A stretch of 64,000 bases of DNA, from the NCBI GenBank assembly GCA_965178125.1, contig OZ237752.1:434001-498000 (forward strand), in the 5' to 3' direction. The translations under genes were made by a program, and so were the position numbers. The DNA is from Bilabrum cf. latius (taxonomy: Eukaryota). Of this stretch, positions 1 to 64,000 are shown in pieces. How positions within the stretch are numbered: position 1 is the first letter of the stretch; every line of letters begins with the position of its first letter. The notes beneath the pieces are model-generated. The model saw only the letters and a program-made list of their open reading frames with translations. It made no database searches and was not told the DNA's origin.

Positions 1-1623
1 GAGTCCGCTGGAGTCTAGTCTTGGCTCGGAGTCCCGTTCGCTGCAGATACTGCAGGCGCCAATAGGTTCCTGCCCCCCAAGCCGCGGCCAGCATGGAGCG
101 GCGTGATTGATGCTACCAAGTACGGGCCGGGGTGCCCGAGTATCCATCACAACCCGGACGTTCCGGCAGTTACCACAGAAGACTGCTTAAACGTCAATAT
201 TTATCGCCCAGCGAGTTCGAATGAGCAGCTTCCGGTAGGCCTTTTCATCTATGGCGGTTCATTTGCGGAGGGAAGCAACCAAGGCCCATTTGGGATCTAC
301 AACGGCTCTTACATGGCCGGTAAGCACGGGATTCTTGTCATCGAGGTCAACTAGTGAGTATCTTGGCGGTGCAGCTTTTGTTCTGTTTTTGTGTTTGGCA
401 ACAAATCATTGTATTTGACCCATCTGCGCTTTGTTCGCAGCCGCCTGGGCGCGCTTGGAAACGTCGTGATCGGTGAGGATGGCAGCGGCGCGGCGGGCAA
501 CATGGACCTTCTGGACCAGCGATTCTGCATGCAGTGGGTGCAGCAAAACATCCACCTGTTCGGCGGAGATCCGAACTAGGTCACCATCTGGGGCGAGAGC
601 GCAGGGGCGATGAGCGTGGGCATCCACCTCGTCTCGCCGGGCAGCCGCGGCCTATTCCGGGCCGCCATCCAGGAGAGCAACCCCGTCGGGATGATGTACA
701 GGAACACGAGCGGCGCCTCTCTGTACGGAGCCACCTTTTGCGACCTCGCGGGGTGCCAGCCGGGTGGTCCCACCGCCAAGTGCGACATGGAGTGCCTCAG
801 GGAGAAGCCGCTCGACACGATCCAGCAGGCGTGGAAGAAGGCTTCCGATGACGTGGGCGACTTTATCCTGAGCGACTGGGGACACCTGCTGGATGGAATC
901 CTGGAGGGGAAGCCCACGGTGGACGGAAAGATCGTCCCCGGCGAGCCAGTGACGCTGTTGAACGAGGGGAAAGCCGCCGACGTGCCGGTGCTCGTAGGAT
1001 CGAACGGGGCAGAGGGCGCCACATTCATCTACGCTGCGCTGGAGCAGCCGCTCGAGTGCATCTTGTACAGCCTGGCGCTAGACGTGATTCTGGGCTTCGA
1101 TGACTCCGGCATGGTGCAGAACAGGACGGACTACTCCCCCAGCATCGGGAACTTTTCCGACTGCAGGCCGCAGTTTGGGCGCGCCGTCACTGACTGGTGG
1201 TTCGGTTGCGGCCTGACGAACTTCGCGCGGGGTGCGACAGCCGCTGGCAGCCGCGCGTTCGTTTACGAGTACACCCACGTGTTCTCCGGGGCGCGCATTT
1301 TCCCCAAGTTCGGCCTTCCCGTGCAGTGCGAGACGCAGTGCTGCCACGCCCCCGAGCTGCCCTTTGTGTTCGGGAACGACGTCCCCTCGCTGAACGCGAC
1401 CTTCACTCCCAAGGAGCAGGTGCTCACGGAGCAGATGCAGGCGTACTGGGCGTCGTTCATCAAGCACATGGACCCGAACGTGGACCGCGTGTCCGGGTCT
1501 CCCCAGTGGCCCGTGTGGGACGAGCAGCACCAGTCGGTGCTTCGGCTGGACACCCCTGCCCCCACCGTGACGAACCATTCCGATCTGTGCCATTTCTGGG
1601 ATGGCGTGGGGTACGAGCACTGA
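1..1623 (+). CDS. Type-B carboxylesterase / cholinesterase-like alpha/beta hydrolase (5' partial; intron 354-440; in-frame TAG at 16 and 577)
   Basis: Motifs [16 protein letters not shown] and IYGGSF are present. NYRLG is restored by splicing GTGAGT(354)..CGCAG(440). [15 protein letters not shown] carries the nucleophile Ser, GSNGAEG the acid and CCHAPEL the His. Ends TGA 1621-1623. Confidence 0.93.
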
Positions 1624-1915
1624 ATATTGAGAGCTCGGACATTCCCCGCTCATGCTGCTTGCGTTTTGAGTGCGTTGACACACGAGTGGCGTCCTCGGGT
1701 GACGCGGCGGCAGCTCAGCGAGCTACGGGCACGGTTCCCGTCGCTGAAGCGGGCGTCGCCGCGTGGGTAGGGCTGCTGATTGCAAAACACAAGACTGATA
1801 TTAGTTAGCAAGCGATGCACGAAAGCGTCGCGCGACCGCAGGCTCGGTCCGCGGTTGCGACCGGCGGGCCGGCAATCGGTTTCGCTCAATCGAATAGGCA
1901 TTTTAGGAGCTCGAC

Positions 1916-4900
1916 ATGCAACCTGCGAGCGGTTCAGATACCATGAATTTACCCCCACTCAGAGCAATTCTTGGGGTTGGATCCTACGGCAAGTAGCGCG
2001 CATCAAAGGAGCTGTCTAAGTCCTCTCACACCTCTTTCACGGTATTTGCAGCATCTCTCCCCGGATTTTTCAGTGACACACCGGTGCATGTGAAGATTTC
2101 GAGCAGCCAAGTATCCGTAGTAGATCCTGTGAAGAGCTCGGTGAGCTGGGCTGTTTGCGTGGTTGGACAGCCCGGGGAATGGGTGGATGCCTAATTCTGC
2201 TACTCCAAGTTGCACTCTTTCACCGCAGGGGTATTTTGCCGCACCAGTTCTTGAAGTTGCTCTCAAACTGACAGACGGTTTGTCTAGGGACCGACCGCTT
2301 CTGGAGCTGGAAGGTAGCTCCGGTCGCGATCGGATCTCGGTTCGATTCGCTGCCAAGGACGATGCAGTTCATTTCTTGGCATCGGTTGCGAGGCATAAGT
2401 CTGCGCTCGTATCCGTGAATCGCGGCGACAGCGGGCAGTCTCCGGTCTTTCTGTGCCTGCGGCTCGCAGATGACGTGTTTGACGATCCATCCCTGGTCGC
2501 CGCAAGACAATCATCGCTCGTAGCATCCACCATCCGCGACATGCATGCGGACGCCATCCATTCTGAGAAGGATAGGAGCTCGTTCCAGGTTCTATAGCAT
2601 CTGATGCACTCGCAAACAGCGAGGGCGGAGCGACCGGTCCCTCCGCTGCGAATCCGGGGCGACGGCCGCTTCGCGGATGCATCGCACGGCCCTGCAGAAA
2701 GGGACCTGGAGGCAGCCCCGGACTGCCAGCCACCAGAATCAAACGCTGCTCCGCGCCCCGGCGGCGGGCAGCCGCATTCCCAGACAGGCGCCGGAGGCAC
2801 CGGCGCTGGCACAGCTGCGGGCCCGCCGGGCGACCGGCCGGGGACCCGTGCACTCCTGTCCTCTGGGGCGGCTGCAGGCCTTGCGTGGGTGCCGTACGCC
2901 ATTCGCGTGACTGCGACAGACCTTCTGGTCCTAGATTCCGTGAGAATGAGAAGCAAATGGGGTCGCGTTCTCGATCGTCCGATCTTGCCCTTTCTGTGTC
3001 CCGCAAACCCTGTGTCCCTGCTGCTTTTTCTACTTGCATGCGCCTGTAATCCGCCCTACCTCTATTTCTGCAACTCCGCTCGCTCGCAGGAAACCCTCGA
3101 GGTGCAGGACGCTATTCCCTACAGCCAGGTGCAGTCCGTGTCGTCGTTCGGGGACGCCAGCCCGCACTCGCTCGTGATTGCGCTGCAGTTCCCCAGGAGA
3201 CCCCTGCTGCTGCGATGCGCGGCAAAAGACACCCTCCTGGCACACATAGAGCGCGCGTCCTCCAAGCGGGTGCGCATTCCTCTGCTCCAGGGAACACACG
3301 AGGCGGTAAGGGCCTTATGGCAGCCGCTGCAGGGGGTACTGGGCAGGCGCAACCCTTCTGGAATGACCGGAGTCGGCGTGCCTTTGCCCTGGCCGATGGA
3401 TAGACAGCTCCGTGCGGGCGTGAGAGGGCCGGAAGAGGAGCGGAACGGCGTTGTGCCGGTGGTTGGACCGCGCTTCGAGACGCAGGTGAGCTAGACGGGG
3501 GCGGTCGCGGCGGGTACCCCTCCGGGCGGTGCGTCCACGCCCACGGTCGAGACAGAGGCAGTGATCGGTTCTCTCGACGTGCGAGCGTGGCGCGCGCACC
3601 CCATGCTGTACGATCTCACCGACCCGAAGGAATTCCCAGAAGTCGCGGGCCGAGTGGGTGGCAGCATCGTGCTGGAGATGCCGGTGTGGGCGGAAGACTC
3701 ACGAGGAAGTGCAGGTGCCACCTGGCGGCTGTGGCAGCAGCTAATGGTTGCGTCGCAGGAAGAACTGGCTCGCCTTGCGGGGGCAGAGCAGTGCTCCATG
3801 CCGCTGGTGCGGCGGGCTCGCCGGGCGTTGTTTCAGAGGTGCGTTGCCGTCTTGCCGCAAGGCAGAGCCCGCTGCTCGATCGGCGTCCATTTCGGGGCAC
3901 AGGCCGGCAGCAAGGGGCCATCGCCCACTGCAGCCACCGTGATATACGGGAGGAGCGGGCTGAATCCGCCTGCAACCGAGTACGGACACAAAGTGGAGGC
4001 AAAGGATGCAGCCGCTGTGGTCAAGCCATCCCATGTGGGTGCGGGTGCTGATGCTGGCGCAGATCCTTACTTTGCGTATTCGCCGGCCCACAGCGGCAAG
4101 GTTACCGGCCGGGCGCCCGAGGGCGGGCTATCAGAAGGAGGCATTGCTTCTTCGATCGCGTGCGGACCCGCATCATATCTCGGAGCTGAGGACGACGAGG
4201 ACGATGGGCAGCGGCATGTCGCCGCTGTTGACACCGCGGCCGGCTCTGCAAGAAGGGAACAAGGAGCAGCCGCTGCAGGAGCATTCAGCAACGGCTAGCA
4301 CAGGCTGCGGATTGGCGCGCACGAGGACCCCCGCATGCCGGTAGGATGGCGGCCCATGGTGCGCCGCACGCTTGCCTTCACGGACACCCACGTACTGGAG
4401 GTGGCCACAGTCGTCCTTGAGGCCGTTCGAGCAGGTGACCAAGCGACAAGATAGGCAGCACCGAATGGATCTCCAGGCAGGCCTTCCGCGCCCACCGCCT
4501 CACCCATGCGACGTTCGCAGAGTCACGAGTCCGATGGGGCGTGTGCCATTCGGCAGGTCATCACGTGGAGCGCCCCGCTTGCAGACGTGGATGCGGTCCG
4601 CTCCACCAGGGCCGCAGTGATGAGGCCGTCTCCATTGGCAGATGCGGCTGGCGAATCCCAGGGCATGGCGGATGGGACAGGCGCGGGGGAGACTCCAGCC
4701 GTGGGCATCCGTTCCCGGATCGAGTGCAGCCCGGCGCAGGACACGGGGCTGGCGATCCACCTGAGGGGTGGTGTCACAAGGCACTACGTGACGAGTGGTG
4801 CTGTGCCGCTGCCCCAGGCACCGGACGGCCGCACCACGTTTGTGGGCGCGGACGCTCTGCAACTGGCCGGCCTGCTGGAACGAAGCGCTCCTCGGGAGGC

Positions 4901-7900
4901 GAGTTCAAATGGAAGCGCCAACCGCGGCCCGTACAGCCGTGGCGACGCAGGAGGCTCGCCGGACACCAGCGAGGGTGACATAGGGGAGGGTGCCAGGGAC
5001 TCCGTCAGGGCCTCCCACAATCGCACGCTGCAAAACGCAGCGACGAGGCTTCGCGGCTTCATGGCATCGTGCGGCGTGCTGTCGCACGAGCTCGGAAAGT
5101 TCGGTGCCACTGGCCCCATTGCATCGTTCGCTGCCCGCACCCGGCTGCCGGTGCTACTCACCAAGACGGCTGCGACGTGCAGGCAGCTTATCGCATCGCA
5201 GTTGCTGTGCGCGAGCTCGCAACACAGGCCTGGGTCTCCCCCGCTGTCGATTAGAGCACCGCCACTCCTGACCTCGCCCGTGATCGGAGACCGCACGACA
5301 GCTTTGCAGGTTGCCACCAGGGCGGCCGGCTGGGAGGCGCTGCGATCAATCGGCCCCGACATGCCGCTCCCTGAGCTGCAGGCGCGCTTGTGGCGGTTCC
5401 TGTCATGCGTTCCAGCATGGGGTGTGACTGAGGTCCAGAATACCGCCGCAGTCGGCGCTGTTCTCAGCGTGGCCGCCACGTTAGCCGCCAGGTGGGCCGC
5501 TGGGGGTGCAGGAAGTGAATGGGCCAAGCGGCGGCCAAGCAAGCACGTGACGTATGTGGACGGATCCGAGCCTGGCATTCCCAACGCAGGCAAGGGCAAG
5601 AACGGTAAGCTTCTCATCACCATGCTGAATGGAGAGGCCGCCAGTCCAGCAGCGCTCGCAGCGGTGGGGATCGGGCAAGGGGGTTCCAGCGGCACTTTGC
5701 AGCCTGGAAGGGGCGCTGCCATGGAGGCACTGGAAGGCTCTGTGCTGGCCAGGCGACCTGGCACGCCTGCAGCTGGCACTAGTGGACGGGGCAGCAGTGT
5801 GGGTGTGGGTAATGCTTCAGGTGGCTAGGCGGGGGCTGCAGCTCGTGGAGGTGCCGGTGCTGCGGCATCGTCTTCATCGTTGTAGAGTGCTATCGCCCAG
5901 CAGGCTGTGGCACCGACCACAGGGTCTGTTGCGGACGGTTCCTCTTCGTCTGCATCGGACGTGGACAGGGACGCCAGCGGCCTGCCTCTGAGGCTGCGCT
6001 GCAGGATCGGGCTGGCGGTGAGCGGCGTGGTGGGCGAGCCAGAGCACGACGCCATCGCGGATTGCCTCGAGCTGTGCTCGCACGTCCTGACTCGACTGTG
6101 CTGGTGCAAGCAAGGCCTTGACCTGGCCAGGGCTGCGGTGACTGCGAAGCCCTCCCTTGTGCGAGCGCTGCTGCTGCCCTCGCTGCAGGCATCGTCAAGG
6201 AAGTGGTCCTCCAGGGTCGTGTCCGTGCTGGCAGCCACGGCCAACTCGCCCAAGTGGCTAGACCGGTTTACCTCCGAGTGTGCCATGGCATCAGCTGCTA
6301 CTACCGTGTACGAGACTCTAGCAAGGGCCGGCGATGCCGTCTCGAAGGTGATCGGCGGCAGCGCGCTGGCACGTACGAAGCAGTTTGCCGCTGATGTGGC
6401 TGCGTGCGACCTGCTGTCCTACCGCAGAATGATGGCGGCAATCGCAGCTGCCCGCCCGGCGGTCTCTGATGACGTCACTACTGGCGGCCCTGACTGGGTC
6501 GTATCTCCGCTGGCTTCCATTGGTCTGCTGCCGGAACACGCGTCGGGTGTGGCTGCCAGCCACCTCTTCGAGATCGCAGGTGCGACGGCGATGCAGGCAG
6601 TGACGCAAGAAATGTCCGGAGTCAGGCTTTCCTCCCTTCAGCGCGTTAAAGCAGGGGACATTGGCGCGTAGGGTACCACCGCTGGGGACGGAGCAGTCGA
6701 CGGGTATGGTGCTTGTGCACTGGGAGGAGCTGCAGACGGAACTCCAGAGTCACTCTGCGAGGCCGAGGCAGCCATCCTGTCGCAGTCCGCGGTGGCGATC
6801 TCCAAGGCCGCGGAGGATTCGTGCAAGACCCACCACGCCACGATGCGGGGTGCCTCTATGCTGGCTGGGATCGTTGATCTGCTGCAGGAGCAAGCCAGCT
6901 CGGCGCTGGTCGGCAGCAGCGACGCCATCGCTGCCGCAAGCATCCGATGCCTCTCTGCCGTCATGAACCTTGGCCAGCCCAGCAGGCGCGAGGAGCAGGC
7001 TTCCGAGCAGGGCTACAGCGCAGAGGCCCAGAGGCAGGAGCTCGGCCGCACAGTGGATGACGGCGGGGAGAGACCTGCGCTGCCGCACCCCGCGCTGGAT
7101 TCCCGCCTCTCTACAAAACAGGTAGAGGCGCAGCGACCCAAGCTGCACACGCTGGGCGAGTCCCTCTAGGAGGTCATGGAGGAAGATCCGAGGGCCAGAC
7201 CGGCCACGATTGCTGCCCACGATGAGGCGTCTGATACGGCGGGGGAAAGGCGAGGCCCGTCCGGGCTTGTAATAGGCACGTCTCGCCTCGACGGAAGCAA
7301 GGGACAGGGCGTTTCGTTGCTGAAAGACTCTCAGCGGTCCTTGTACAGCGAGCGGACGGGCCTAGATCGCAGTTGCATCCTGTCCACATCGCCAGGACTC
7401 GTTGCATTCGGCTCCGTGCACGAGCGGAGGGCCCGTACCGCGGTGTTCCAGACAGACCCGGAGATGCTCCGTGACATGGCCCTAGCATTCGCCATGTCCA
7501 CGTCCTCCAGGTACGCCTGTCCCTCCCACGCAGCCATCGTGTCGCTCTTTCGCAAGGTCTTGTTCTCCCTTCGGGAATCCACGGATGTGCTGCACTATGC
7601 AAGCCTGGCTGGGCTGACTAGCTCGTCCGCCGCTGCTGTGCATGCCGTGTCTGACGGAACCGAGACCGTCGAGATACTGAGCCTGCAGGCCCCACGGTCC
7701 TTGCGCCGGGTGGCGCGCTTCATGCGGGACCGTAATGAGCCTGCTGCCAGCAGAAAGCGCTCGTCATCATCGTTGAGGAGCGCGAGGAGACGCTTGGACA
7801 TCGGCAACTCATCAGGGGGCGGGCCTGCCGCAGGGCGGATGAATGCAGGGAGTCACCTGCCGGCGAGGGTAGAGCTGGCTCGTGTGGCTCCGCTCGGGTG

Positions 7901-10900
7901 GGTGGCTGCCACCCTGCCGCCCGCAGGGATCGGAGAGATGTCCAGCACCGACCCCGTAGCTGGGGGACTCGTCACCAGGGCCGCCGGAGATGCCGTGCTG
8001 TAGGCTGGTGATGGCAGCGAGTGGCAGTCGAATGGGTGGCTCTCCATCTCCCTCGTCATCGATGGCGCGCAGGACAGCATCGCGCAAAGCGAGCAGAAGC
8101 GGCGGGCCCAGGTCGACAGGCTGCCTGAGCTCGCCGACGGCAAGCCAGTGAGGGTTGTCAGCACGCTGCACTCGCTCGGACTGCAGATCGCTTAGGACGG
8201 GCGCGTTGCTCCAGGAGTGCTTGCGGAGTGCCAAGACGTCCTGACCGCTCTCCGGCACCGCCTCGAGATGCACGATAGGCCAGGTGGGGCCAGTTTGCTG
8301 GAGGATGTCAAGTACATCGAGCGGTCTCCTGCCGCCGTGAAGCGGAGAGCAGTGGTGCAGAGCGCCGCTGGTCGGGACGTCGCTCTGCCGGGAGTTACCG
8401 TGCCGGGCACGCTAGACGCGTGCTGGATCGTGGAGCACTCCACGCTCGGTCTGGGCTACGTGGCCGCATTGACGGAGCAGCGGCGGGCGCAGCTGCAGCG
8501 CAAGGCGAAGAGCACACACGCCGCCGGCATGAAACCTGAGCTTGAGGGCCTCGCCGAGTTGTCGGCGGGTGCGGGGCAGAGCGACTACCCCGCGGCGAGC
8601 ATCTGCCACCCCGAGGTGATCGCAAGGTGCCTCTTGTCCAGGGCTGCCGAAGACGTGCGCTGGCGGTCGGCCGCCGATGCCAAGAAGCTGGAGGGAATCG
8701 CAGCGTCCGGACTGACCGTGGCACTCTCTAAGCTGCTGGAGGACGTGAGCGGGCTGCGATCACTACTTCTACGGGCCATTACATCCCCGTCTCGATGCAA
8801 CGGCCTGCGCGTCTCGGCTTGCCGGCTGCTGCGTTCGGTGTCGGCCCAGATGCCGAGCGCGTACACGGATCTGTGGCAGGTTCTGCCGGAAGGGATGCTC
8901 CCGAACCCGTTCGTCATCACGCTTCACAGTGCCTCTGGACGCATCGTTGGGATGGAGGCAAGGGATGCCTCTCGATTGGCACCTGGCGAGCTAGCAAAAG
9001 TAGGTGGGTGGACCGGCGGCGCCGCCACGATCAGCCTGAATGCCGACTGCTGCGCGTGCTGTTCGGGAGCCGCGGTGGTGGCTCGTAAAATGGACGAGGA
9101 ATCTGCCATGCACACCGTGATTACGGCCGAGACTGCGAACCCCATTGTGGATTGGGCTTCCAGTCGGGCCAACCACACCGTGACTCATTTGGGAGTCACG
9201 CAGGACTCTGTGATCTACGGTGCTGTGCAGCTGCTGGAGTTGTGCGATGGGCTGGCGGGTCTAGCATCCGCCCGGGAAGCTGCTTCGGCTGGGCGGGCTC
9301 GGCTGGCGCTGCGTCGGCTGTCGGTCGCTGGGTCTGTCGATTCTGTCGCTGCTTCCGCAGCAGCCAACCTGACAAGTGACGGCGGCGTGTTTGCGGCCAA
9401 CGGAGGTGACGCTGACCTCTGGAACAGCCCAATAGACAGCGGCACCCTGTAGGGTCTTCTTGACTCGGTTGCGATTGACCGGCTGCTTCAGTCGAGCAAC
9501 GAGCAGAATGCGTATGGTCTCATGAGTGACCGGGCGGAGAGATGGTGGTGCGCTGTGTCGGCTGCCGTGCGCGGCTGTGTGGTGCACAGTTTCGTGCCGG
9601 GCCGTCGAGATTCAGAGATAGGGAGTTAGGGGGCGTATTCGCCGGGCGTGTCCAGACAGGGCAGCGCGATTCTCATGCAAATTGGAAGCACTCAAGCCGC
9701 GCCTCGTGGCGAAGCCGCCCTGCACCTGTGGCCGAGCCGCGCGCCCGGTGCCTCCGTGTCGTCAATGAAGGAGCGATTGCTCAGGGCATCCGCCGCGGCC
9801 GGAGCATCCTCGAGCGGATGCCTCTTAGCAGAGCCGTCCATCCAGTCGTTCGTGCTGGCCATTCAGCAGTTCGGCGCGTTCGCCTGGAGGGTGCCTCAGG
9901 ACCCTGTGGCCTACCCGAGTGCTGCGCTGGAGCTTCGCGTCGGCGCCCAGACAGCTGCGGTGTTTCTGAGAAGGATGTTTGACGGGCCGCCGCTGCCGGG
10001 TGCGTTCGCGCAAGAGGCCCAACAGGCACTGCAAGAGAAAGCAGAAAGGGGACCCACCGATATGGAGGACGAACAAGCCGTGGCGCACGCTTGCGTCGTG
10101 TCTGCCATGGCTCTCGAGCCGGTTGAAGCCACGCGGTTGCTGCCCATGCATCGACCAATCCTCCGGAAAGGCAGACACATCAACCCAGTCTCGCTCTTCC
10201 TGAACCTGTGGCTGCGCTTCCGCACAGAATTAAAGGACAGCGCCACAGTCAGACAGACTGCAGCGCAGCGGGAGCGGAGCCTGGCCATTCGATTGGCGTG
10301 TCTCCGCACGATGGAGCGCATTGCGTTTGCCATGAGGAAGCGAAAGGATGCCATGCGATAGCACTAGTTGAGCGTGCGGCTGCGCGACGTGTCTACAGCA
10401 GTCGTGACCCCACAGCTGCAGTTTGATGAGCTTGCAATGACGATTGCGATGGTGCTAGCATCCAATGGCGGGGCATGCTGCACTGGTAACCCTGAAGCGG
10501 ACGCACGGACCCTGCTTGCCGCGGTGGAGCACGGAGATGAGGGCTCGATGGGTGGCGGCAGCCATCACTCTAGCGACGGTCCAGGCGCTGTCCCTGGGGA
10601 CGACGACGAGCACAACGATCCAACCGCGACGCCGGGCCGCCATGCCGCGGCTGGGGACGAAGCAAAGGCCGGTGCCGGATCCAAGCAGGCATCCGGCGGT
10701 GCCAGGCGTTCTGGGCTCAAGGTGAGGATCGAGAACCCCGCAAGCAGCGAGCCTGTCAGTATGGGTGTTGCCAGCAGGAAAGGCAGCTCGGCACCCGTCA
10801 GTTCGGAGCACTGGTTCGAGTTGCAGAAGGTGGAAGGTCGCGCGCCCATCTCCTTGAACGAGCAGATGGAGCTGCTGTTTTAGTGGCAGGCTCTCATGAC

Positions 10901-46149: not shown

Positions 46150-46167
46150 CCGGCGCCGTGAAAGGTC
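46150..46167 (+). repeat. Left terminal inverted repeat core of the transposon
   Basis: CCGGCGCCGTGAAAGGTC, the exact reverse complement of 50027-50044. Confidence 0.9.
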
Positions 46168-49583: not shown

Positions 49584-50026
49584 TTTGGCTGTGATGTAGA
49601 TTAAGTTGATATAAATGCCAAGTAGATAGATGCACAAGAATCGGGTCACGAAGCACGTAATTCATGGCAGGTCCACATTCGATTCAATATCTTGTAAACC
49701 GTTTGGTAACTTTTTTGCGCTAAGACTTATATATAATATAACCACCGATTAATTCAAAAAAGCTTGTTTATTTTGCAAGCATGCCTGCTTGGACAAACTT
49801 CTGCAGTATCAAAGTAGCCCTTCCTGAAAATCGAGCGTTTGGTTTCATGACCACCAAGTATACTATTGTCGCAAGTTTATCAATGAGTAACACTCGCAGT
49901 CGATAGTTAACTTATACAATTTTCAATATCTTGATATTATTTTAGGATTACTTGAATGGTACGCGAGAATCGGTAAGGTGAATTGAAGGTACCGATATCG
50001 GCGATACCGGTCGGTCGGCCAAATCC

Positions 50027-50044
50027 GACCTTTCACGGCGCCGG
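50027..50044 (-). repeat. Right terminal inverted repeat core of the transposon
   Basis: GACCTTTCACGGCGCCGG, the exact reverse complement of 46150-46167. Confidence 0.9.
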
Positions 50045-50099
50045 GTAGACTGCTACAGTAATAATAAAATCATGAGAACCTCAAACTGGCGCGTTAGTT

Positions 50100-53000: not shown

Positions 53001-55394
53001 CCCACTGTCCGTGTCGTCGTCCTCTCCGCCGTCGCCGTCGCCGTCGGCCGTTGAAGTGCTCCTGCCCCTGCGGCCACCGCCCCGCCGGCCGCCCCTGCCA
53101 ACGTATGCTTCGTCCGCCTCGCCGTCTGCACCACGCGCGACCGAGCCGCTGCGCGCCCTAGACTGCTTGCTGCAGCCGCTGCCGCCGCGCCTGGGTGCAC
53201 CTGCTGCCGAGTGCGAAGAGGCCTGGGCTGCGGACGAGGACGAAGACGAGGACGAGGACGGTGCGGTGCCACGGTGATTAGCACCAGAGTGCCCGTGCCC
53301 GGCGAGCACCGACGGGTCCAGCTGGCTCAGAACCTCGTTGGTGACCCGCAGCATGGGCCTCTCCCCGTCCTCTTCGAAGACAGGAAAGGCCAGGATTTCG
53401 ACAGGGAGGCCCTGCCTGACCGATGCCTCGGGACCGCCGATCTGAGCCACTCGCGCGATGTGGGCGTCTCTGAGCGCGGTGTACGTCTCCTCCACTGCAG
53501 TGCGGTTCTCCGGCGTGTCATCCCCTTTGGGAGCCTGGTCTGCCTTGGCCTGCTTGGCGCTCGTGCCTTGCTTCTTGTCCTGGACCGCGTACTCGTCGAT
53601 GCGGCGCTGCACCCACTTGGCGGTGTCGGGGTTGGCGAAGCCGTGCTGCCCGCCCTCCACCTTGCGCTTCATGCTGCTGTTCCAGTGGTTCTTGATGGCG
53701 TTGTCCGTCCGGCCGTCCACCAGCCTGGCGATGTCCGCCCATTTGTTCCCCAGGATCCTGTGCGCCTCGAAGATCACGTAGTCCTCGTCACGCTCCCATG
53801 GGCCCTTCTTCACGAAGGGGTTCAGGTGGTTGTGCCACCGCTCCCGGCACTGCTTGCCGATCCTGCCGGGCAGGTGCTCCGAAATCAGGCTCCACCGCTT
53901 GGCCCCGTGGAGCGCGACGAGTGCCTTGACCAGCTCGTCCTCTTCCTGCAGCCACTGGCCCTTGTACATCTTGGGAGGGACGCCGTCCTTGTGCTTGGTG
54001 GCGCGGGTGCCGGGCCGGTTGCCCAGGTGCGGTGTGGCCGGGGAGGCGAATCCACGGGTGGATTTACCGATCACGGGGCTAGTGATGCTGCTCCTGCCCG
54101 TCGGGAAGGTTGAGGTGGAGGCTGAGGTGGAGGAGGAGGAAGTGTGACCGGCGGTGCTCGCTGCCTTGGATCTACCGCTGGACTCTGCACCGGAAGCCGC
54201 TCCTCTCCTCCACTGGCTGATGTGTTCCCTGGCAAGAACATCCGCTGCGTTGGCTGCCCGCGCCACGGCTGACAGCGGCTTCCCCTGCCTGCCCCCATGG
54301 TCTGACGAGGCCGAGGACGAGGACGAGGACGAGGGCGGCATGGTGACGAGTGCCCGCATGCTGCTGCCCGAGGACGTGCCAGAAGACGATGAACCGCCTG
54401 CTGCGAACGCGGGGCCCGTACCAGCACCATAGGCGGAAGAGTAGTGCCCCGCGTCACCCTCGGTGCCGAAGCGCAGGAGCCGCCTGGGCGATGCAGCACC
54501 CGGCGCACCCACTGATATACCCTGCGAGTCAGGACCGCTAGAAATTGCGCCGCTGCCAGAGCCAAACCCGCCTGCCCCTGTCCCAGGGCCCCCCATGCCC
54601 CCCGCGCGGCTGCTGCTCAGCTCCGCATCGAAGTCCGCCCGCATCGCCGCCATCGCCACTGTAGATCCCCTCGATAGGCTGCCGCCCGCTCGCCGGCCCG
54701 CGGACTCGGAGCCCCGCTGGCTCATACCGCCTGTGGACAGAGCCGGGGACAGCAACGCGGCGGCGAGGCCATCCGGCGCTCCACCGGTGGATCCCACAGG
54801 TCCGGGAGGTCGCCTGCCCAGACCAGAGGGAGCGTGCGGGGGCATGGCCGTCGTGGACGGTGACACGGGTGCTGACGACAGCCCCACTGCGTCAAACAGC
54901 CCGGTTCGTGCGGCACTGAAGTCACTCGTAGAGGCCCCCGCTCTCAGCCCGAGCGAGCGAGGCGACAAGGAGCCCCCTTGTGCGGGAGTGCCTGCCTGGC
55001 CGTGGCTTGGGAGCGAGGGTGGGATCACTTTCCGGTGCACCAATGCAGCTTGTTCGCTTGGCATCAGGGGGTTGAAACCATGCGGTAGATATCCTGGCAC
55101 GTGCTGCCCCCCTGTTGCGGCAGCAGCGGCAGCAGATGCAGATGCAGCGGCGGCGTCGGCGTCGGCCAGGAGCATCTGCTGCACCCTTGAGGCGATCCGC
55201 ACCGGATCCAGGCCGAGAGACCGGAGCTTCTCTGCGTGCGGGCCATTGACTAAAGTACTGGCTCTGAATGAGCCCTTCATGCTCTTGCGGTACGCCTGCG
55301 CGGCGGCTTCGATGGCCTGGGCCGCTTGCTGCTCCGACACTCGAGGAGCGTCCATCCGACCATGCAGAACAGTGCTCGCAGATGCGTTTGACAT
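50100..55394 (-). CDS. c-Myb-like R2R3 MYB transcription factor with long low-complexity flanks, ~1,764 aa; one in-frame TAG at 51704
   Basis: [73 protein letters not shown]. ORFs 51702..55394 and 50100..51701 abut in frame across one TAG. Ends TAA 50102-50100. Confidence 0.92.
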
Positions 55395-56242
55395 GATTTT
55401 GTCACCCCTTCGGAGCGTACGTGTTTAAAGAAAATAGTAGTTTCTTTAGTCTCGCGTTCTTTCTGGTCGTGCTACGCGAGGCCGTAAGCGAGTCGGCCAC
55501 CCAGCAGCTCGGTCGTGTTCAAAATTGCCCTTGCGAGTCTTCCTGATCCCTGCTCTGAGACTCAGAATCTGGCAGTCTGCGGCGCATAGAAGAAATGATA
55601 AACAAACCAAATACCATATGGTTGCTAATAAAATGACTACGGCACGCTCTGTAAGTGGCAGTCTGGGCAAGACCGGTTGAGTTACACGAGAAATGCAGAA
55701 TCGGCCCTGTAAGGAGTTCAAAGGGTAAACCATATGCAGCACCCTCAACATATGAAGCGGAATAATACAACTATAGCACTGAAGCGACCTCATTCTCTAG
55801 AAGAGCTCCCATGACTGGCTAGGCAAAAACGCTACTGCTGTGTGAGTAGTCCAGGCTGGCTGCATCTGGCCGACACTCAGGCACGAAAATCCGGCCAACA
55901 CGCTTCAAGCATACATTAAAGGCATGCTTAACACATTTGCCCCTCGAACAGGCTCATTTCGGCTCAGGGTGTCGACATACTCGTCATGTCGGGTGTGCAC
56001 TGATTCAAAAATCTGCACAGCCTAAGACGACTGCAGCAGCCGCAATACTGCCATAAAGAGGAATCGAATGCGGATCACCGCTTATTCACTTTGTAATCAA
56101 ACTCACAAACCAGATTATTGTGTCTGAACGGAACCAGGGCGCGCTAGAGGCACCAGTTGCTGATGGACCCCCAAAGCCATGCGAATCTTGATTTTCGAAT
56201 GTTGCGTGCAAGAAGGGAGAGGTCCGTTCAGCTCACAATCCA

Positions 56243-59200
56243 ATGGACGATGCAGCGCGAAATAGAGTCGCACTAGTGATTTCATCGCAAGCTTCGCATT
56301 TAGAAGCTGGACTAGCAGCTATTCTTGGAACCTGCTCACTGAAAGTGCAAAGGAGAGCACCAATCAATGTTGGAGTTGCCGCTGCGCAAACTCTGCTTTA
56401 GGAAGCGGCTTGTGCAGCATCAAATACGTCTTCTGGGGCACCTGGCGGCCAACATGATGATCAAAAATCGGCGAAATCCGCAGTCAAGAAGCCTGGGAAG
56501 AAGAAGGGGACGTCAAAATCCGTGGAGACCCAGGGTTCTTCAGCTGGTAGCGAGACACAAGACCCACGCTAGTACGTCCCCCCACCATTTCACGTTCAGG
56601 AATTGCATCGGAATCAAATAATTGCTTTATTTCTGGAGGTCGACTAGCGCCGCGCTGCTGCTGATCCGTTGCTTGCAGCAGCAGCTCGGTAGGAAGGCCA
56701 GGCTGCCGGCGACGGCGCCCAGCCGCTGGAGTCCCTGGAGGGTGAGAAGGCGCTGTCTGCTGCGATCCGTAGGCTTAGATAGGTAATCGGTCAACTTAAT
56801 CCGGAATGGGGTCGCGCTGCGGTAGACCAGCCGGCAGCACCGACGGGCGCCTCCCTGGAGGACGAGGGCGGCGACGGCCGCGGCGGCAAGGGCAAGGGCA
56901 AGGGCAAGGGAAACGACAAGAAAGGCAAGGGCAAGGCAGCTAGTAGTGATGACTCAGCGTCTAGCCCGCGCCCCCAGTCGCAAGCAGCAACGCCCGCAGA
57001 GCAGGCGCGCCAGATAGGAAGCAGAAAACCGAAAGGGCAGACCGCCGGTCTCCAAGGCAGCACGCTGGCTCGTTGGTAGCGAACCTTCGACCCGGTTCGC
57101 CCGCCCGTGCTCATCAAGCCCTCCAAGAGAGGGTATGCCGAGTCCCTTGGCAGCATATCTGATGACGAGGACGAGGAAGAGGAAGAGGGGAGAGCGGGCG
57201 CGGCCGGCCCTGCTGCTGCTGACGATGACGATGACGACAACGATGCTGACAGCGTGACGGGGGTGTCTGCGGGGCATCAGGGGCGCGTCGGGTTCGCAGA
57301 CGGGCTTTTGGGGGACGTGGAGCAGGTGGAGGAGGACGAGGCAGACGAAGGGGTGCTGGCCAGGGTAAGGGCGGGCGAGTGGCACCCCCTGCTGATCGTG
57401 CCGCCCGTGTCACTCGAGCACGGCAGGAGGATGGTGCAGCTGCTCGAGGCTGCGGAGCTGCAGTCCTTGTCCAACGCGCTGGAGAGCACAGAGAGCAACG
57501 TGGTGGCCGTGCGGGCCCGCATGTTGAAGCGGGGCTGGCAGAGGGTGGACCACCTCATGGAATTTGTGTTCCCTGCCGACCTGCAGACCCCCAGGTCCAC
57601 GGGGCGGTTGCTGCTCCTGTGCGAGTGCGGGCCACTGGACGACAAAGGTAACTTGCGGGGCGGCAGGGCCGGCATGCACGTGCTCAGGTCGCACGAGCTG
57701 AAGCTCATGATGGACGAGATAGAGGCGGAGGATGCGCTCGAGGCGTTCCTCGGCTCGGGGATCGCGGGGGGCTTACCGGAGAGCGAGAGGGTGGGCATAC
57801 TCGCTTCCTTACGGGACGCGATCCGAGAGATGCCAAGGGTGTCGGAGGGCCAGGTGAGGCGGGTGCTCCGAGGGATGCACAAGGACAGCAGGAACAGGAT
57901 CGAGTTCGTGCAGCTGCAAAAGTACGCGACGGGGGTAAGGAGGCAGCGAGTCGCCGAGCTAAGGGAGGTCGCGGGGGGCAGAGCCTCTCAGGGGAAGCGG
58001 GCCAAGAAATACCACGTGTCGCCCCCGGCGCCCATCCTGGGAAAGGGGGCTCTTGCGGTCAGCGGCAGGCCCACGAGAGCGGCGTACACCACTTACTTGC
58101 ACGCCACGCAGAGGGCCTCCGTTGTTCCCCAGGGAACAAGGTCGAGGGAATCATCTAGGCCTCCCAGCGCCGCCACTCGATCGCCGCCGCGCACTAGCGG
58201 AACCTGGAATGGCGAGGTAGGGAGCCGCGGCCGAAGCACGGCAGGGTTCGGCGGCCTGCTGGGCGAGGAAGGTGCTGGCGGTGAGGAGGAGAGCAAGCAC
58301 GGCGGTGGCGGCGGCTTTGGGGGCACTTCGCGCGGCAGATTAGGGCCGTCTACGGCGAGCAGCAGTGCAAGTAGTGCTGGCATGGGCGGAGTAGATGGCA
58401 CGGGAGCGGGCAAGGAGGAGGAGGAGCAGGCCAAGGTGGTGAGGATGATCCAAGCCGCCAGGAGGGGCAGGCCCCCAGGGAGCGTGTCCGATCTGGGGAT
58501 GGCAGGGTACGGCCTGCGGGGTCCCATGGACGTGCTTGGAATGGCTGGCGTGCCTGCAGAAGGGGAGAAAGCTGGGTTGCTGGCAGCCACGGGAGCGGCC
58601 GACGCAGGCGTGGGTGGTGGCGGGCTGAGCAGCGGGCTGGAAGGCAGGATCGGCAGGACGGGCGCGGAGGGGCGGAGTCAAGAAAAAGGCAAAGGCAAGG
58701 GAAATGCCAATGGGAAGGGAAAGGGCGCGGCAGCAGCAGAGACGGGCACCATGCGCAGCGCGACTAGGTACGCCACGGTGCGCGGTGGTCCCGCTGGGGG
58801 CTCGCCTATGGCGGGGGAGGGAACACTGGGGAGGAGCAGCCCACAGCGGGGCACAAGGGGCCGTGGTGCTGGTGGGGGGTTAGGATCAGGCAGACCCGTA
58901 GGTAAGAAGACGCTGCATGCCGGCAGGCTGCTGGATCCTTCTGCTGCGGACGACGAGGCACCAGTGGATGGAGATGTCAGGGCCGCGCGAGTGCTCATGC
59001 TGGCGTCGCATGGCAAGGCCGCGCGGGCGGGGGGTATGGGACGCACCAGGGAGGAGAGGCTGGCCGTGGCGGCATCTCGCAGAGAAGCGGCCTCCAACCG
59101 CAGGAGGTAGGCGGCTGGTTCCGCAGCTGCGCTGGGCGCCGCGGGGGCCCGTGCGGTTGCCGCTGCTGCGTCGGGCGCCGCGGCGCGCCCCATAAAGCTG

Positions 59201-59464
59201 AACTCGACCAGCCGGTCCGGTTACTTCGATCCTGCTGTGCGGCGCTCGGAAAACAGTCGCAGGAGGGAACAGGAGAAGATGCTCGGCAAAAATGCTCACC
59301 TCGTCGCGGCGCACACCGGGGCTGCTAACGGCGTGGCGATTGCGACCAACTCGCTGCTGCTTCGCCGCGAAGCACCTGCTGCAGAGGACAAGTGGGATAG
59401 GGAAGCAAGCTTGCGCCGCACAGGCTTAGGAAGTCGTGTAAGGACGCACAAACGCATCTACTGA
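56243..59464 (+). CDS. Hypothetical protein (~1,073 aa) with possible degenerate EF-hand-like segments; 7 in-frame TAG
   Basis: One frame runs from ATG 56243 to TGA 59462, interrupted only by TAG at 56399, 56570, 56645, 56690, 56780, 57077 and 59108. GK repeats and acidic tracts are present. MHKDSRNRIEFVQLQ is weakly EF-hand-like. Function unknown. Confidence 0.7.
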
Positions 59465-59582: not shown

Positions 59583-60884
59583 ATGGTGAGAGATGTGTCC
59601 AGCATAGCGGGTTATTGACTTAGATATTATTGTTTCTTTTAAATCTGGGCGTATTATTGTCGCGAATCTCTAACTTATGGCGCACAGCGGTGCGTCGGAT
59701 TGTCACGCGGTTTTTAATCACCGTCCAACCGGACTTATCTGCACATTTGCTAAACTTTTGAGCGGCCTGCTAGGCTGAATATTTGGCCAATAATGTATTT
59801 TTGTATGATGGGCGCGCAGCTGTATCGATGCAGTCCTCCCGCCCGTTTGATGATTTCGAAATCGCTGCATCTTGCATCTGCATCACTCCCACACGAACCG
59901 GAGGTCTTCACGCTTGTTCGACTCGTTCAATCGCAGGCAGGAGTAGGTGGTGATCCATTTTCCTTTGGAGGCTCTGCACCAGCGCCTGCCGGACCCCCAG
60001 CGGCCGGTGCTGATGGCGCCCTGCGTGTGAAGCTTGTTATGATCGGAGACGGTGCCGTGGGAAAGACCACTTTCGTGAAGAGGCACATCAGTGGTCATTT
60101 TGAGTCCCATTACAAGGCCACGAAGGGTGCCAACGTCAAGGCCATGGATTTCAACACGAACTACGGACCTATCAAGTTCATTGTTTGGGACACTGCTGGT
60201 CAGGAGAGCCTTAACGCGGTGCGCGAGACATACTAGTGAGTATTACTATCATTGTGTTGTCATATCCTGCGGCATGGGTAGCCGTGCGTTGGGGTGTCGC
60301 TGCGGGCTGCATTGGAACCGTGGGGCTGCTACGCCCGCAGCAGCTTCACCCAGCACTCGGCCCTAAACCCTGGCTTCCTATGGGTAATCTATGATCCTAA
60401 CTTGCATGACTTGGTTCGTTTGTATCGCCTGCTTGTTCTCCCGCCCCGCAGCGTGGGTGCCAAGTGCGCCATCATCATGTTCGACGTGTCGTCCCGGACG
60501 ACGTACAACTCGGTGCCCAACTGGTACAGGGACCTGACCAGGGTGACCGACACTCCCTCGGAGCACATCCCCATCGTGCTCGTCGGCAACAAGGTGGACA
60601 TCAAGGACCGCCAGGTCAAGTCCTCCAAGATCAACTTCCACCGAAGGAAGGGAATCCCGTACGTGGATGTGTCGGCCAAGACCAACTTCAACTTCGAGCA
60701 GCCCTTCCTGCTGCTGGCCCGCCACCTCACCCGCAAGAAGGACTTGAGGTTCGTTGAGAAGCCCGCCCTGGTGGCCCCCGAGGCGGGGTTCAGCGTCTCG
60801 GATGAGACGAAGAAGCAGCTTGCGGAGGAGAGGCTCAAGTCGATGGCCGTCGAGATGCCCGACGAGGACGACGATGACTTGTGA
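59583..60884 (+). CDS. RAN: Ran-family small GTPase (divergent), ~244 aa; introns 59586-59936 (inferred, ATG-only first exon) and 60236-60451
   Basis: Motifs [35 protein letters not shown] (restored by splicing), [26 protein letters not shown], and the Ran acidic tail DEDDDDL. Ends TGA. Confidence 0.9.
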
Positions 60885-61378
60885 TTGTAACGTTTTGAAT
60901 TGTGGGCAGTCGGAGCTCTAGGGGCTTGCGGGAAGCGGAGCGCAGCCGTCGCTTTCATTGCCTTGCCTCGCACTTTGAACCGACATTGTTTAGCCTTCAC
61001 GTTCTGCCCGCGTAGCTGACGCACAGCAACACCAGTACATCAATGTCACTACAGGACACGATGAGGGGATGCTCTGCATGCCAGTCTCTTTGAGCAGCCA
61101 TTCGTTGACCAGTCGAGATGAAGATTCGGGATCCAATCGAAGCTCTCTCGGGCGAAGGCCTCTAAGGTTATTCTGTACCGCTTCGATCCATTGGTATATT
61201 TGCCAGCACTTGTTTCTTGCAAGGCTGAGTACCCGTGTTCCACCAGTGTATGCGTGCTGGCATACAATAGTTGACACGTCGCCTGCGAATAGGACTACAA
61301 AGACCAGCTGTGCAAGCACTCTAGCTGCATTTGTAGCGCTTCTCTAAGCATCTATCAATCAATCGTTTTAATAGTAGA

Positions 61379-62563
61379 ATGGCAGCAGTTTCGTCGAGCG
61401 AGACTGCTTCGTCGTCTGCGGCAGCCGCGGCTCCCGCGGCAGTGCCTTCCCAATCGTCCCTTCGGGCGCCGGTGCTCTGCCCAACAGTCCCTTAGATGGG
61501 ATCAGCCATGGCAAAAGCTTTTGTTGGCGACGCACCAGATCCGTTCAGGGTTGGCCTTGTTCAGATGCTTGTAGTTCCCACCAAGGGGGACAACATCCGC
61601 AACATGCAGCTCAAGGTAGCGGAGGCAGCAGCCGCTGGAGCCAAAGTCGTGGTGCTCCCCGAGGTGTGGAACTCATCCTATGCTACAAGTGAATTTCCTG
61701 GGAACGCCGAGCCCGTGCCGGATGCCGGTGCCGGTCCAGACGACGAGATCATGAAGCGAGACCAGGCGATCTCCTGCAACGCCATGCGAAACGCTGCGCA
61801 GGAGCACAACGTCTGGCTTGTGGGCGGCTCCATTCCGGAAAAGCGCTCCGGAAAAGTGTACAACACGTGCACGGTGTGGTCTCCGGACGGCAGGCTCGTG
61901 GCGAAGCACCGAAAGGTGCACCTGTTCGACATCGACGTGCCCGGCAAGATCACGTTCAAGGAAAGTGACACGCTCACAGCCGGCAGCGAGCTGTGCACCT
62001 TCGACACTCCCTACGGCAAGTTCGGCGTGGGCATCTGCTACGACATGCGCTTTCCCCAGCTCGCCGCCCTGCTCCGCTCCTCGGGTTGCCACTACATCGT
62101 GTATCCAGGTGCATTCAACACCACCACGGGCCCCGCGCACTGGGAGCTCCTGCAGAGGGGACGTGCCTTGGACAACCAGTGCTACGTGCTGACTTGTTCC
62201 CCAGCCAGGAACCCCGCGGCCAGCTACCACGCCTGGGGCCACAGCACCATCGTGGACCCTTGGGGCTCGGTGGTTGCAACCACCGGGCACGAGGAAGCCA
62301 TGGTGGTCGCGGAGATCACCCCGGCTAAGGTCGAGGAGATCCGGAGCCAGATTCCCGTGGGGGTGCAGTGGCGCAGCGACCTCTACGCAACTGGCTGGAG
62401 GGGCGCCGACGGAGGTGCCAAGGCCCTCGTGGCCCTGGAGCAAGAGAGGGCTGAGCTGGCGGCCGCAGCAGGGGCAGGGTCTGGGGACTCGGATGGGAGC
62501 GGCCTGTCCGGGAGGAAGAGGAGCAAGGTGGAGGCGGCGGCAGGTGCCGCCGAGGGGCAGTGA
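61379..62563 (+). CDS. NIT2: Omega-amidase NIT2 / nitrilase-superfamily C-N hydrolase, ~394 aa including an Ala/Ser-rich N-terminal extension read through TAG 61493
   Basis: Glu-Lys-Cys triad in LPEVWNS, HRKVHLFDIDVPG and GICYDMRF, plus AFNTTTGPAHWELLQRGRALDNQ and AWGHSTIVDPWG. An upstream in-frame ATG at 61379 (agaATGG) extends it; the alternative start is 61496. Ends TGA 62561. Confidence 0.92.
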
Positions 62564-62581: not shown

Positions 62582-62922
62582 GATGGGAGGGATGCGATGG
62601 GAGGGATGCGATGGGAGGGATGCGATGGGAGGGATGCGATGGGAGGGATGCGATGGGAGGGATGCGATGGGAGGGATGCGATGGGAGGGATGCGATGGGA
62701 GGGATGCGATGGGAGGGATGCGATGGGAGGGATGCGATGGGAGGGATGCGATGGGAGGGATGCGATGGGAGGGATGCGATGGGAGGGATGCGATGGGAGG
62801 GATGCGATGGGAGGGATGCGATGGGAGGGATGCGATGGGAGGGATGCGATGGGAGGGATGCGATGGGAGGGATGCGATGGGAGGGATGCGATGGGAGGGA
62901 TGCGATGGGAGGGATGCGATGG
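62582..62922 (+). repeat. Minisatellite, 24 copies of the 14-bp unit GATGGGAGGGATGC plus a partial unit
   Basis: Read directly: 62582-62917 is 336 bp = 24 x 14, and I saw no variant units. Confidence 0.97.
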
Positions 62923-63097
62923 ATGGCCGACCTGATCGAGATAGGGAAGGAGGAGCCCCCGCATATACTATCGAGAGCGGTGTTGCACAAAGAACAGCAT
63001 GCAATTGTCATGTTATTTCATGCTGGCATCTATCGTAAACTGATCGCATGCATGCACACGATTCTTTTTCCCTGATTCTTTCGTGGCAATCTTGTCG

Positions 63098-64000
63098 TCA
63101 GCCTCGCTTCCTCGCACCTCCAGACAGAGCCTCCGCGTTCTCCTCGGCAAAGTCTTTCAGCGTGCGGGGAGGCCTACCCAGCAGCCGCTCCACATCGCTA
63201 GTCAGCTCGCCCGCTAGCCCGGCGCGCGCAGTACCGTAGATCGCCGCGGTCACGCCAACATACGCCAAGGGGTCCCCCTACCTGACTCTGTGCATGACGA
63301 AGCCCAGCATGCCCGGGTCCTCGTACCTGTGGGGCACGCCCGTCGCTCCCTATAGGCTGCTCGCAACCTGACCGTAGGTGAGACTTTCTGGGCCGGTGAG
63401 GTCGTATGCTTTGCCTGCGTGCTCCTCCGGGTGCAACAAGGCCTGGGATGCCACGGCAGCGATGTCCTCAGCATCCACGAAGCTCGTCTTGCCCTCGGCG
63501 GCAGGAACCCGGATCACTCGCCCGCCGACTGAGCTCGTGTCGTCTGCGCGAAAAAAGGGGGCAGTGGCGTGTGATACTCTTCCGATGGAATATTAATTCC
63601 AGCGCGGACAAAGGACTGCGAGCTAACGTGCTGGGCCGTGGTCGAATGAGTGAACCACTGGCAGCGACACGCCCCGCAAAGCCTCACTCTCTACGTGTGG
63701 CCCAAGCAAGTTCTGCATGAAAAAGCTGGGCCGGAGCATCGTGAACGTTGGAGTAGTTGCATTGAATGGACCCGGCTGCGCGGCTGCGCTAGAATATCCG
63801 CTGCTGGGTCTATTTCTGTCGCTGCTGAATGCCGCGTTCATCCAGCCTGCCACGCCGTCGTGGGCTCGTCGCATCGAATCGCCAACACCATCGATATTGA
63901 CCGGCTCCTAGCCGCCCCCAAGATCTATGAGAGCATCTTCAATGGGCTTATGCGGCACTACCGGTATGTTCTAGATGCCTAGGAGGCTCAAGAATACAAA
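63098..64000 (-). CDS. NmrA-like / atypical SDR NAD(P)-binding oxidoreductase (5' part outside window); intron 63544-63687; TAG at 63973, 63910, 63352, 63280
   Basis: Motifs FVFLSLLGI*NIPVVPHKPIE, TMLRPSFFMQNL, VPAAEGKTSFVDAEDIAAVA, GKAYDLTGPESLTYGQVA and DVERLLGRPPRTLKDF. The GTGAGG..CGCAG intron removes an in-frame TAA. Ends TGA 63100-63098. Confidence 0.88.

Follow-up and report, generated by a model that had tools for sequence, protein, structure and literature searches.

Nuclear genomes seldom depart from the standard genetic code, and they uncouple UAG from UAA even more rarely; codes of the latter kind test how changes in release factor and in tRNA are coupled. Published reassignments of UAG alone have given this codon to glutamine in Iotanema spirale, Hartmannula sinica, Trochilia petrani, and Protocruzia tuzeti (PMC11687900), to leucine in the rhizarian exLh and in TARA phyllopharyngean ciliates, and to serine in Scotinosphaera (PMC5304391; PMC11687900). 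The UAG-only reassignments listed in the sections of PMC11687900 devoted to them include no stramenopile. For these codes, a tRNA with a CUA anticodon, one change away from tRNA-Gln(CUG), has been predicted or found, together with changes in the N domain of eRF1 by which UAG is recognized less well (PMC5304391; PMC11687900); the eRF1 change described for Iotanema is T32G in the GTS motif (PMC5304391). Here, we analyze a 64-kb stretch of protist DNA (contig OZ237752.1, positions 434,001 to 498,000; hereafter, the window) with a G+C content of ~62%, in which the genes are interspersed with in-frame TAG codons. An earlier note, made from the DNA letters alone, had proposed that TAG is a sense codon throughout the window, and the intact reading frames, a spliced contig, and the orthologues of relatives all bear this out.

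Reading frames were delimited by TAA and TGA alone, so that TAG did not interrupt them. Eleven long frames obtained in this way, amounting to 17,109 codons, contained 80 in-frame TAG codons, or ~4.7 UAG per 1000 codons, and not a single TAA or TGA. The two off-frames of the same 11 stretches held 571 TGA, 78 TAA, and 205 TAG codons, from which ~324 in-frame TAA and TGA codons would be expected without constraint, versus none observed. All 11 frames terminate at TGA (nine frames) or TAA (two frames), and no frameshift was found in frames of up to 16 kb. Read with the standard code, these stretches break into pieces of 300-1700 codons. TAG also occurs in runs, such as TAC TAG TAG CAG TAG and (TAG CAC)5. 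Three of the 80 TAGs precede the first ATG of their frame, and three further ones, in the frame of the omega-amidase Nit2, lie upstream of the likely start (MAAVSS), so that ~74 of the 80 fall within likely coding sequence. Adding two TAGs in the aligned part of an NmrA-like gene and three in its adjoining frame brings the total for the window to 85, distributed over 12 of 13 genes. This recount agrees closely with the ~86 TAGs in 12 of 13 genes on both strands that the earlier note had given; the 16-kb frame with 27 TAGs and no TAA or TGA, which it had singled out, was confirmed as 2145-18221, and the individual TAGs that it had named at 577, 19517, 41048, 41060, and 44432 were all found in place. 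Together, these results support a sense reading of TAG in intron-bearing nuclear genes of either strand.

The 11 frames also separate TAG from the other two stop codons. In-frame TAG and CAG stand at 80:525, and in-frame CAA numbers 115; were the TAA:CAA ratio equal to this TAG:CAG ratio, ~17 in-frame TAA codons would be expected. As none was seen and two frames end in TAA, TAA has not been reassigned. Thus, UAA and UGA still terminate translation.

The TAG codons could be followed into independent assemblies at a gene for a four-domain voltage-gated calcium channel. This stretch is present, in whole or in part, in 11 public runs that come from five studies; six of the runs contain at least half of its sampled words, and the assembled contigs (not raw reads) of four runs were aligned over positions 38000-57999. 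One of these runs, X1, shows no difference from the window and is possibly its source. From run X5, which belongs to a separate study, a contig of 6126 nucleotides covers the three channel exons and skips both 92-nucleotide GT..AG introns (coordinates in the table). It has no other difference from the window and retains all four TAGs, at 41048, 41060, 44432, and 45542. In the spliced gene, the frame starts at an ATG (MESGAS...), continues into domain I, and is open from 40700 to the TGA at 46111. Sequencing depth in X5 was zero over the introns and next to none over a transposon region (46671-50005), and it varied tenfold between genes. X5 therefore behaves as RNA. Because its contig lacks both introns, the contig derives from RNA, and the channel TAGs are kept in the spliced transcript. 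The earlier note had named C at the TAG sites, or TAGs spliced out, in RNA as observations that would refute its proposal; the spliced contig has T at four of the four channel TAGs. Weighing against this part of the evidence, the type of run X5 is not on record, an automated guess calls it 'probably DNA', and none of the runs listed as containing this stretch is recorded as RNA. Seven further TAGs are covered, without any difference, by additional X5 contigs, one in a Myb-domain gene and six of the seven in the frame that begins at 56192, and a contig of run X7, from a third study, covers TAG 44432, again without differences. As a separate observation, run X10 (2019), from an organism with a different label (organism D), contains the same genes at ~88-93% nucleotide identity over 41540-57732.

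We found the same trait in relatives of the organism. The 5358-codon giant protein of the 2145-18221 frame is conserved in relatives down to ~50% identity, and fragments of its orthologues are present in nine sequences (proteins P0246 to P0253 and contig L001). Five of these database proteins (P0246, P0248, P0249, P0252, and P0253) are fragments: each starts downstream of one TAG, with GTG, ATG, or TTG as its first codon, and extends to the following TAG. P0252 (96% identical, 714 residues) begins eight codons after the TAG at residue 2017 (8193-8195, + strand), as does P0246. These two relatives would thus also have a standard stop codon at residue 2017, from where the called proteins begin. 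At its other end, P0252 stops at residue 2738, one codon before the first of two TAGs at 10359-10367 (+; residues 2739 and 2741), and P0248 begins at residue 2744. P0249 ends (...VHTTNARL) one codon before the TAG at residue 4639, where L001 has a TAG as well. Fragments bounded by TAGs in this manner indicate that gene calling with the standard code has cut these proteins in public collections.

L001, a Joint Genome Institute metagenome contig of 4114 nucleotides and 60% G+C, was recovered in a metagenome scan with P0250; no relative came from the corresponding scan with P0251. L001 encodes two orthologues whose order is that of the window, namely the C-terminal 714 codons of the giant protein (52% identical) and 622 codons of the neighboring FAD-linked oxidase (55.5% identical), which contain four and three in-frame TAGs, respectively, and no TAA or TGA. 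Both C-termini match those of the window (...EMEETHDPTN and ...SEEL), with a TGA directly after each. One of the L001 TAGs occupies the same codon, in a conserved motif, as the window TAG at 16059-16061 (+, residue 4639). Since L001 has TAGs of its own, one of them at a shared codon, these alignments place the code change before the split of organisms in which orthologous proteins share only about half of their residues.

Regarding the amino acid inserted at UAG, a relative's residue could be read at 14 TAG sites of the window, and at four of these it is glutamine. The TAG at residue 2436 (9450-9452, +) corresponds to glutamine in both P0246 (97% identical) and P0252 (96% identical), within SGTLQGLLDS, and the TAG at residue 2913 (10881-10883, +) corresponds to glutamine in P0248 (88% identical), within ELLFQWQ. 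More distantly, glutamine stands at residue 1228 (5826-5828, +) in P0247 (55% identical), a moderately reliable position as it follows an 11-residue gap, and at residue 4639 in P0251 (56% identical), within the conserved motif VHT..RLQY.S.SR.EAA.R.FHHVAV. Both sites in conserved sequence that are covered by relatives 88-97% identical are therefore glutamine. Among five comparisons with relatives at least 81% identical, three give glutamine, counting a reverse case at residue 2449, where the window has CAG (9489-9491, +), the near relative's P0246 ends just before, and P0253 resumes at residue 2460; this suggests a CAG/TAG difference between strains. In the 3825-codon protein of the window, GQQAMD occurs three times with CAG and a fourth copy, GxQAME, has TAG at 27091-27093. 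Moreover, glutamine was found 31 times within three residues of a TAG versus 18 expected, an enrichment similar to that beside other glutamines; Glu, Lys, Ser, and Trp were depleted within the same distance, and Tyr and His were enriched.

These comparisons were put together in a rough likelihood calculation that used PAM30 for near and PAM70 for distant relatives, on three sets of sites, the largest with 21 comparisons. Glutamine ranked first in all three sets. The runner-up lay below it by 6.0 natural-log units (Glu, near relatives only), 11.2 units (Glu, near and well-aligned distant relatives), and 7.7 units (Ala, all 21 comparisons). Serine was ~11 units below glutamine, and leucine, which was outside the six best residues in each set, was more than 11 units below. 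Comparisons with distant relatives gave scattered residues. Given that TAG is a sense codon, we nevertheless consider it likely that UAG is read as glutamine.

Several observations weigh against this assignment. Ten of the 14 sites show a residue other than glutamine. The TAG at residue 2495 (9627-9629, +), in a fast-changing stretch, is serine in P0252 and P0253 (95-96% identical), and the TAG in the N-terminal extension of Nit2 (61493-61495), a presequence, is glutamate in the relative P0124 (81% identical). L001 has AAG, for lysine, at the TAG within the oxidase motif PHFRPDGxPSAGGDELQSE (19517-19519), and its low-complexity tail places Ile, Ala, Ala, Glu, and Pro at TAGs of the window; conversely, its six unshared TAGs face Leu, Ala, Thr, Arg, Ser, and Asp in the window, none of them glutamine. 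The poorly aligned sites of P0247 give Val and Thr. Proteins of known structure show Thr in bacterial oxidases (PDB 2vfr, E value 1e-55) at the oxidase TAG column and Ser in animal esterases at the esterase TAG (577-579), the latter being a variable column in the alignment of acetylcholinesterases, and the two TAG columns of the NmrA-like gene hold Glu, Ser, or Ala in solved structures; the oxidase and NmrA columns are likewise variable, and such variable columns are uninformative on the residue. Finally, neither the window nor L001 contains a tRNA gene or the gene for eRF1, and no Rfam family matched the window.

The calcium channel gives the main observation that fits glutamine poorly. An alignment took in 67 distant homologues out of 120 listed. 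Its four TAG columns vary or contain much Arg and Lys, and glutamine appears in two, one, four, and none of the 67 sequences. Arg and Lys dominate the columns of TAGs 41060 (38 of 67), 44432 (25 Arg and six Lys of 67), and 45542 (16 Lys and 13 Arg of 40 non-gap residues). We take these columns to reflect tolerance at basic, exposed positions. Arg and Lys were themselves considered as the UAG residue and rejected: the six closest channel homologues disagree among themselves at the TAG columns, Arg codons are two steps from TAG, and Lys is depleted beside TAG and low in the likelihood ranking.

The foremost alternative is that UAG is a sense codon for another residue, such as Glu, Lys, Ser, Tyr, or Leu, or is decoded ambiguously. 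The published UAG-only codes for Leu and Ser provide a precedent (PMC11687900), and the Arg- and Lys-rich columns in three of the four channel positions, the enrichment of Tyr and His beside TAG, and the presence of Glu, Ser, and Lys in relatives at three window TAG sites all agree with it. Codons for the latter three residues (GAG, TCG, and AAG) are one base away from TAG, so that Glu, Ser, and Lys are also expected as ordinary replacements at tolerant sites. Against this alternative, each of the three sites is located in a fast-changing stretch or known from a ~55% identical relative alone; Lys, Glu, and Ser are depleted near TAG, though each clusters with itself; and glutamine both leads the likelihood in every site set and occupies the two conserved sites covered by near relatives. 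We thus consider another residue unlikely.

Glutamine, then, is the residue that we favor, and the account of the window that we regard as likely is that UAG is an ordinary sense codon, most likely for glutamine, with UGA and UAA as stops, which corresponds to NCBI table 15. By analogy with the published cases, the anticodon of a tRNA-Gln would have changed from CUG to CUA, which would pair with UAG and not with UAA, and eRF1 would no longer recognize UAG efficiently.

A second alternative is that UAG has a dual role, acting as a sense codon within genes and, depending on context, as a stop at some gene ends. Context-dependent sense/stop codons are found in karyorelict ciliates, Condylostoma, and Blastocrithidia. 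The window offers only 13 genes, and as TAG was read through when the frames were defined, a genuine terminal TAG before an open stretch would go unseen. On the other hand, both gene pairs shared with L001 have a TGA directly after the conserved C-terminus in both organisms, coding-like sequence goes on past the last TAG of the channel, and UGA and UAA never occur in frame, unlike in the published codes in which all three codons are ambiguous. We see nothing that favors a dual role and consider it very unlikely.

Two further explanations are so improbable that they can be set aside. Since TAG and CAG are one transition apart and relatives often have glutamine at the TAG sites, the TAGs could be sequencing or consensus errors (for instance, a CAG miscalled as TAG), or CAG could be restored by RNA editing. 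Contigs from three studies match the window letter for letter at the covered TAGs, the RNA-derived contig keeps T at every channel TAG, the separate metagenome assembly carries further TAGs, including one at a shared codon, and called proteins of relatives break at the same places; the agreement of three studies, the spliced contig, and the separate metagenome exclude error and editing. Decay into pseudogenes or repeat-induced point mutation, whose usual mark is nonsense codons in many genes, is excluded by the lack of TGA, TAA, and frameshifts, as the earlier note had reasoned, for C-to-T mutation would add TGG-to-TGA changes alongside CAG-to-TAG, catalytic and structural motifs are intact, and the genes are present in the transcript assembly and conserved in relatives.

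To place the organism, we relied on individual genes of the window, in which an Rfam search found no rRNA gene. The omega-amidase has one 99%-identical and one 81-82%-identical relative, and its best named match is Bicosoecida sp. CB-2014 (59-66%). In a Nit2 tree of 121 sequences, the window falls into a clade of 17 tips (support 0.98) in which Bicosoecida sp. CB-2014 and Cafeteria are the only named tips and the inner nodes are unsupported. The calcium-channel tree groups the window with metagenome sequences, within a clade of stramenopiles (Cafeteria, oomycetes) and Palpitomonas. This single-gene evidence suggests that the organism, a GC-rich, intron-bearing protist, is probably a stramenopile close to bicosoecids. 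The earlier note had held that it does not look like a ciliate, a diplomonad, or a green alga, which fits with the grouping of the omega-amidase with two named bicosoecid stramenopiles. The Cafeteria genome preprint, in the parts that deal with genetic codes, mentions a non-standard code for the mitochondrion only (10.1101/751586), and long Cafeteria channel proteins are called without sign of breaks. From these two observations, the code change probably arose after the split from Cafeteria.

The features of the window are listed in the table. Assignments marked Pfam come from a scan that covered the long frames other than the two giant ones and the calcium channel; homologues of the channel carry the Ion_trans family, and the Ran-like gene was recognized directly from its sequence.

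Table. Genes, frames, introns, and channel TAG sites of the window (+ strand coordinates throughout).
Feature	Position	Strand	In-frame TAG	Stop	Remarks
Carboxylesterase exon	358-1623	+	1 (577-579)	TGA	Pfam COesterase, E value 9e-63
Giant-protein frame, 5358 codons	2145-18221	+	27	TGA	no TAA, no TGA in frame
FAD-linked oxidase (xylitol/alditol-oxidase-like)	18263-20137	+	2	TGA	Pfam FAD_binding_4 and ALO
499-codon frame	21457-22956	-	10	TAA	five TAGs in the (TAG CAC) repeat
SAP-domain protein, Q/P-rich	23750-25663	+	5	TGA	Pfam
3825-codon frame	26446-37923	+	12	TGA	
Four-domain voltage-gated calcium-channel gene	39870-46179	+			exons 39870-40194, 40287-40614, and 40707-46179, from the spliced contig
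Channel intron 1	40195-40286	+			92 nucleotides, GT..AG
Channel intron 2	40615-40706	+			92 nucleotides, GT..AG; cut possibly 1 nucleotide rightward
Calcium-channel open frame, 1803 codons	40700-46111	+	4	TGA (46109-46111)	
Channel TAGs, domain I pore loop	41048-41050, 41060-41062	+	2		both in the spliced contig
Channel TAG, III-IV linker	44432-44434	+	1		in the X5 spliced contig and the X7 contig
Channel TAG, C-terminal region	45542-45544	+	1		followed by 189 coding codons, including AVRAIQKTARIWL
PiggyBac-like transposase	47679-49583	+	7	TGA	Pfam DDE_Tnp_1_7, E value 2e-12; no TAA, no TGA in frame
Myb-domain protein, 1774 codons	50100-55424	-	1 (51702-51704)	TAA	Pfam
1090-codon frame	56192-59464	+	7	TGA	
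Ran-like GTPase, two exons	59754-60884	+	none as sense codon		intron 60236-60451 (216 nucleotides, donor GTGAGT)
Omega-amidase (Nit2)	61229-62563	+	4	TGA	Pfam; three TAGs upstream of the likely start
NmrA-like gene	63098-64000	-	2 (63350-63352, 63278-63280)		both TAGs within the region alignable to solved structures of the NmrA family

Some of these features need comment. The 5358- and 3825-codon frames are intronless and rich in Ala, Gly, and Ser and in acidic runs. The scan assigned no Pfam family to the frames at 21457-22956 and 56192-59464. Of the two oxidase TAGs, the one at 18326 precedes the first ATG of the frame. In the C-terminal region of the channel, AVRAIQKTARIWL resembles an IQ motif. 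The Ran-like gene has an apparent TAG at 60234-60236, which is split by the splice donor (TA/GTGAGT...CAG/C) and becomes TAC (Tyr) on splicing; the motif restored in this way is presumably the Ran motif. The three additional TAGs of the NmrA-like gene lie in an adjoining upstream frame, a putative exon. Introns are few and short and are all of the GT..AG type, with two of 92 nucleotides in the channel and one of 216 nucleotides in the Ran-like gene. Just downstream of the Nit2 stop, at 62582-62922, is a perfect tandem array of a 14-nucleotide unit (GATGGGAGGGATGC) with 24.4 copies at 100% identity.

The transposase sits in a repeated element spanning ~46150-50005, over which depth in run X1 was 115-160 versus ~16 in the flanking DNA. 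This PiggyBac-like transposon is multicopy in run X1, with copies that differ from one another, and no relative of the transposase was found in the PDB. With seven in-frame TAGs and no TAA or TGA in its transposase, the element seems adapted to the code of its host. Depth was also very high in all four aligned runs at 38000-38666, 52674-53340, and 54008-54674, reaching 1523 in X5, and these zones showed many odd joints between 42330, 53230-53260, 54300-54340, and 57160-57220. Such joints and depths probably come from simple GAC/GAG/GCG-rich coding repeats that are common to many genes rather than from rearrangements.

The earlier note had further suggested that the reassignment is independent and possibly unreported. 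This stands in part: a search of open-access full text, with most subscription journals outside its scope, yielded no account of an altered nuclear code in bicosoecids or any other stramenopile, but the code pattern itself is known, from table 15, Iotanema spirale, and some ciliates. A published report may exist or be in preparation, and the runs that contain this DNA date from 2019-2025. We therefore propose only tentatively, and with slightly more doubt than belief, that the window represents a first nuclear code change in stramenopiles that is not yet in print, in a GC-rich bicosoecid-related clade with UAG as glutamine and UGA and UAA as stops. If this were true, the clade would span the organism of the window, several closely related strains or species, and the relative from the metagenome, which is only 52-56% identical in two proteins. 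A GC-rich stramenopile case would be a further independent origin, in a group other than ciliates, metamonads, rhizarians, and green algae, and its base composition would oppose the usual account of stop-codon capture by AT pressure. The organism is seemingly cultured and has RNA data, so that the changes in tRNA and eRF1 would be open to direct testing. Calling genes with the standard code cuts proteins at every TAG, and for this group, annotation, estimates of completeness, and phylogenomic data sets are distorted as a result.

Among known systems, the codes of Condylostoma, karyorelicts, and Blastocrithidia, in which all three stops are ambiguous, differ from the window, where none of the 17,109 in-frame codons is TGA or TAA. 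The codes in which both UAR codons specify glutamine (NCBI table 6: many ciliates, Hexamita, Streblomastix, ulvophytes, and Amoeboaphelidium; PMC11687900) resemble the window in that a stop has been captured for glutamine, but they have a sense UAA, in contrast to the window with no in-frame TAA versus ~17 expected and two frames that end in TAA. The rhizarian exLh, the TARA ciliates, and Scotinosphaera share the uncoupling of UAG from UAA and differ in the residue, which is Leu or Ser (PMC5304391; PMC11687900). Also close are Hartmannula sinica, Trochilia petrani, and Protocruzia tuzeti (McGowan et al., 2024), in which, as in the window, UAG is widespread within genes and was assigned to glutamine by genomic inference; in these ciliates, 86.9-98.3% of genes end in UAA and the GC content is 27-54% (PMC11687900), whereas the window has ~62% GC and mostly UGA stops. 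The window also differs from the UAG-Gln ciliates in having spliceosomal introns of 92-216 nucleotides. The formal code is that of NCBI table 15 ('Blepharisma nuclei; some phages: TAG=Q'), with TAG as glutamine and TAA and TGA as stops, although the name of this table refers to other organisms and Blepharisma is described as reading UGA as Trp (PMC11687900). A close counterpart is Iotanema spirale (Fornicata), in which UAG alone has passed to glutamine, as is likely in the window, while UAA terminates, and in which tRNA-Gln(CUG) is predicted to have given rise to a tRNA-Gln(CUA) (Panek et al., 2017; PMC5304391). Iotanema belongs to an unrelated metamonad lineage, and its dominant stop is UAA (PMC5304391), in contrast to UGA, which ends nine of the 11 frames in the window.

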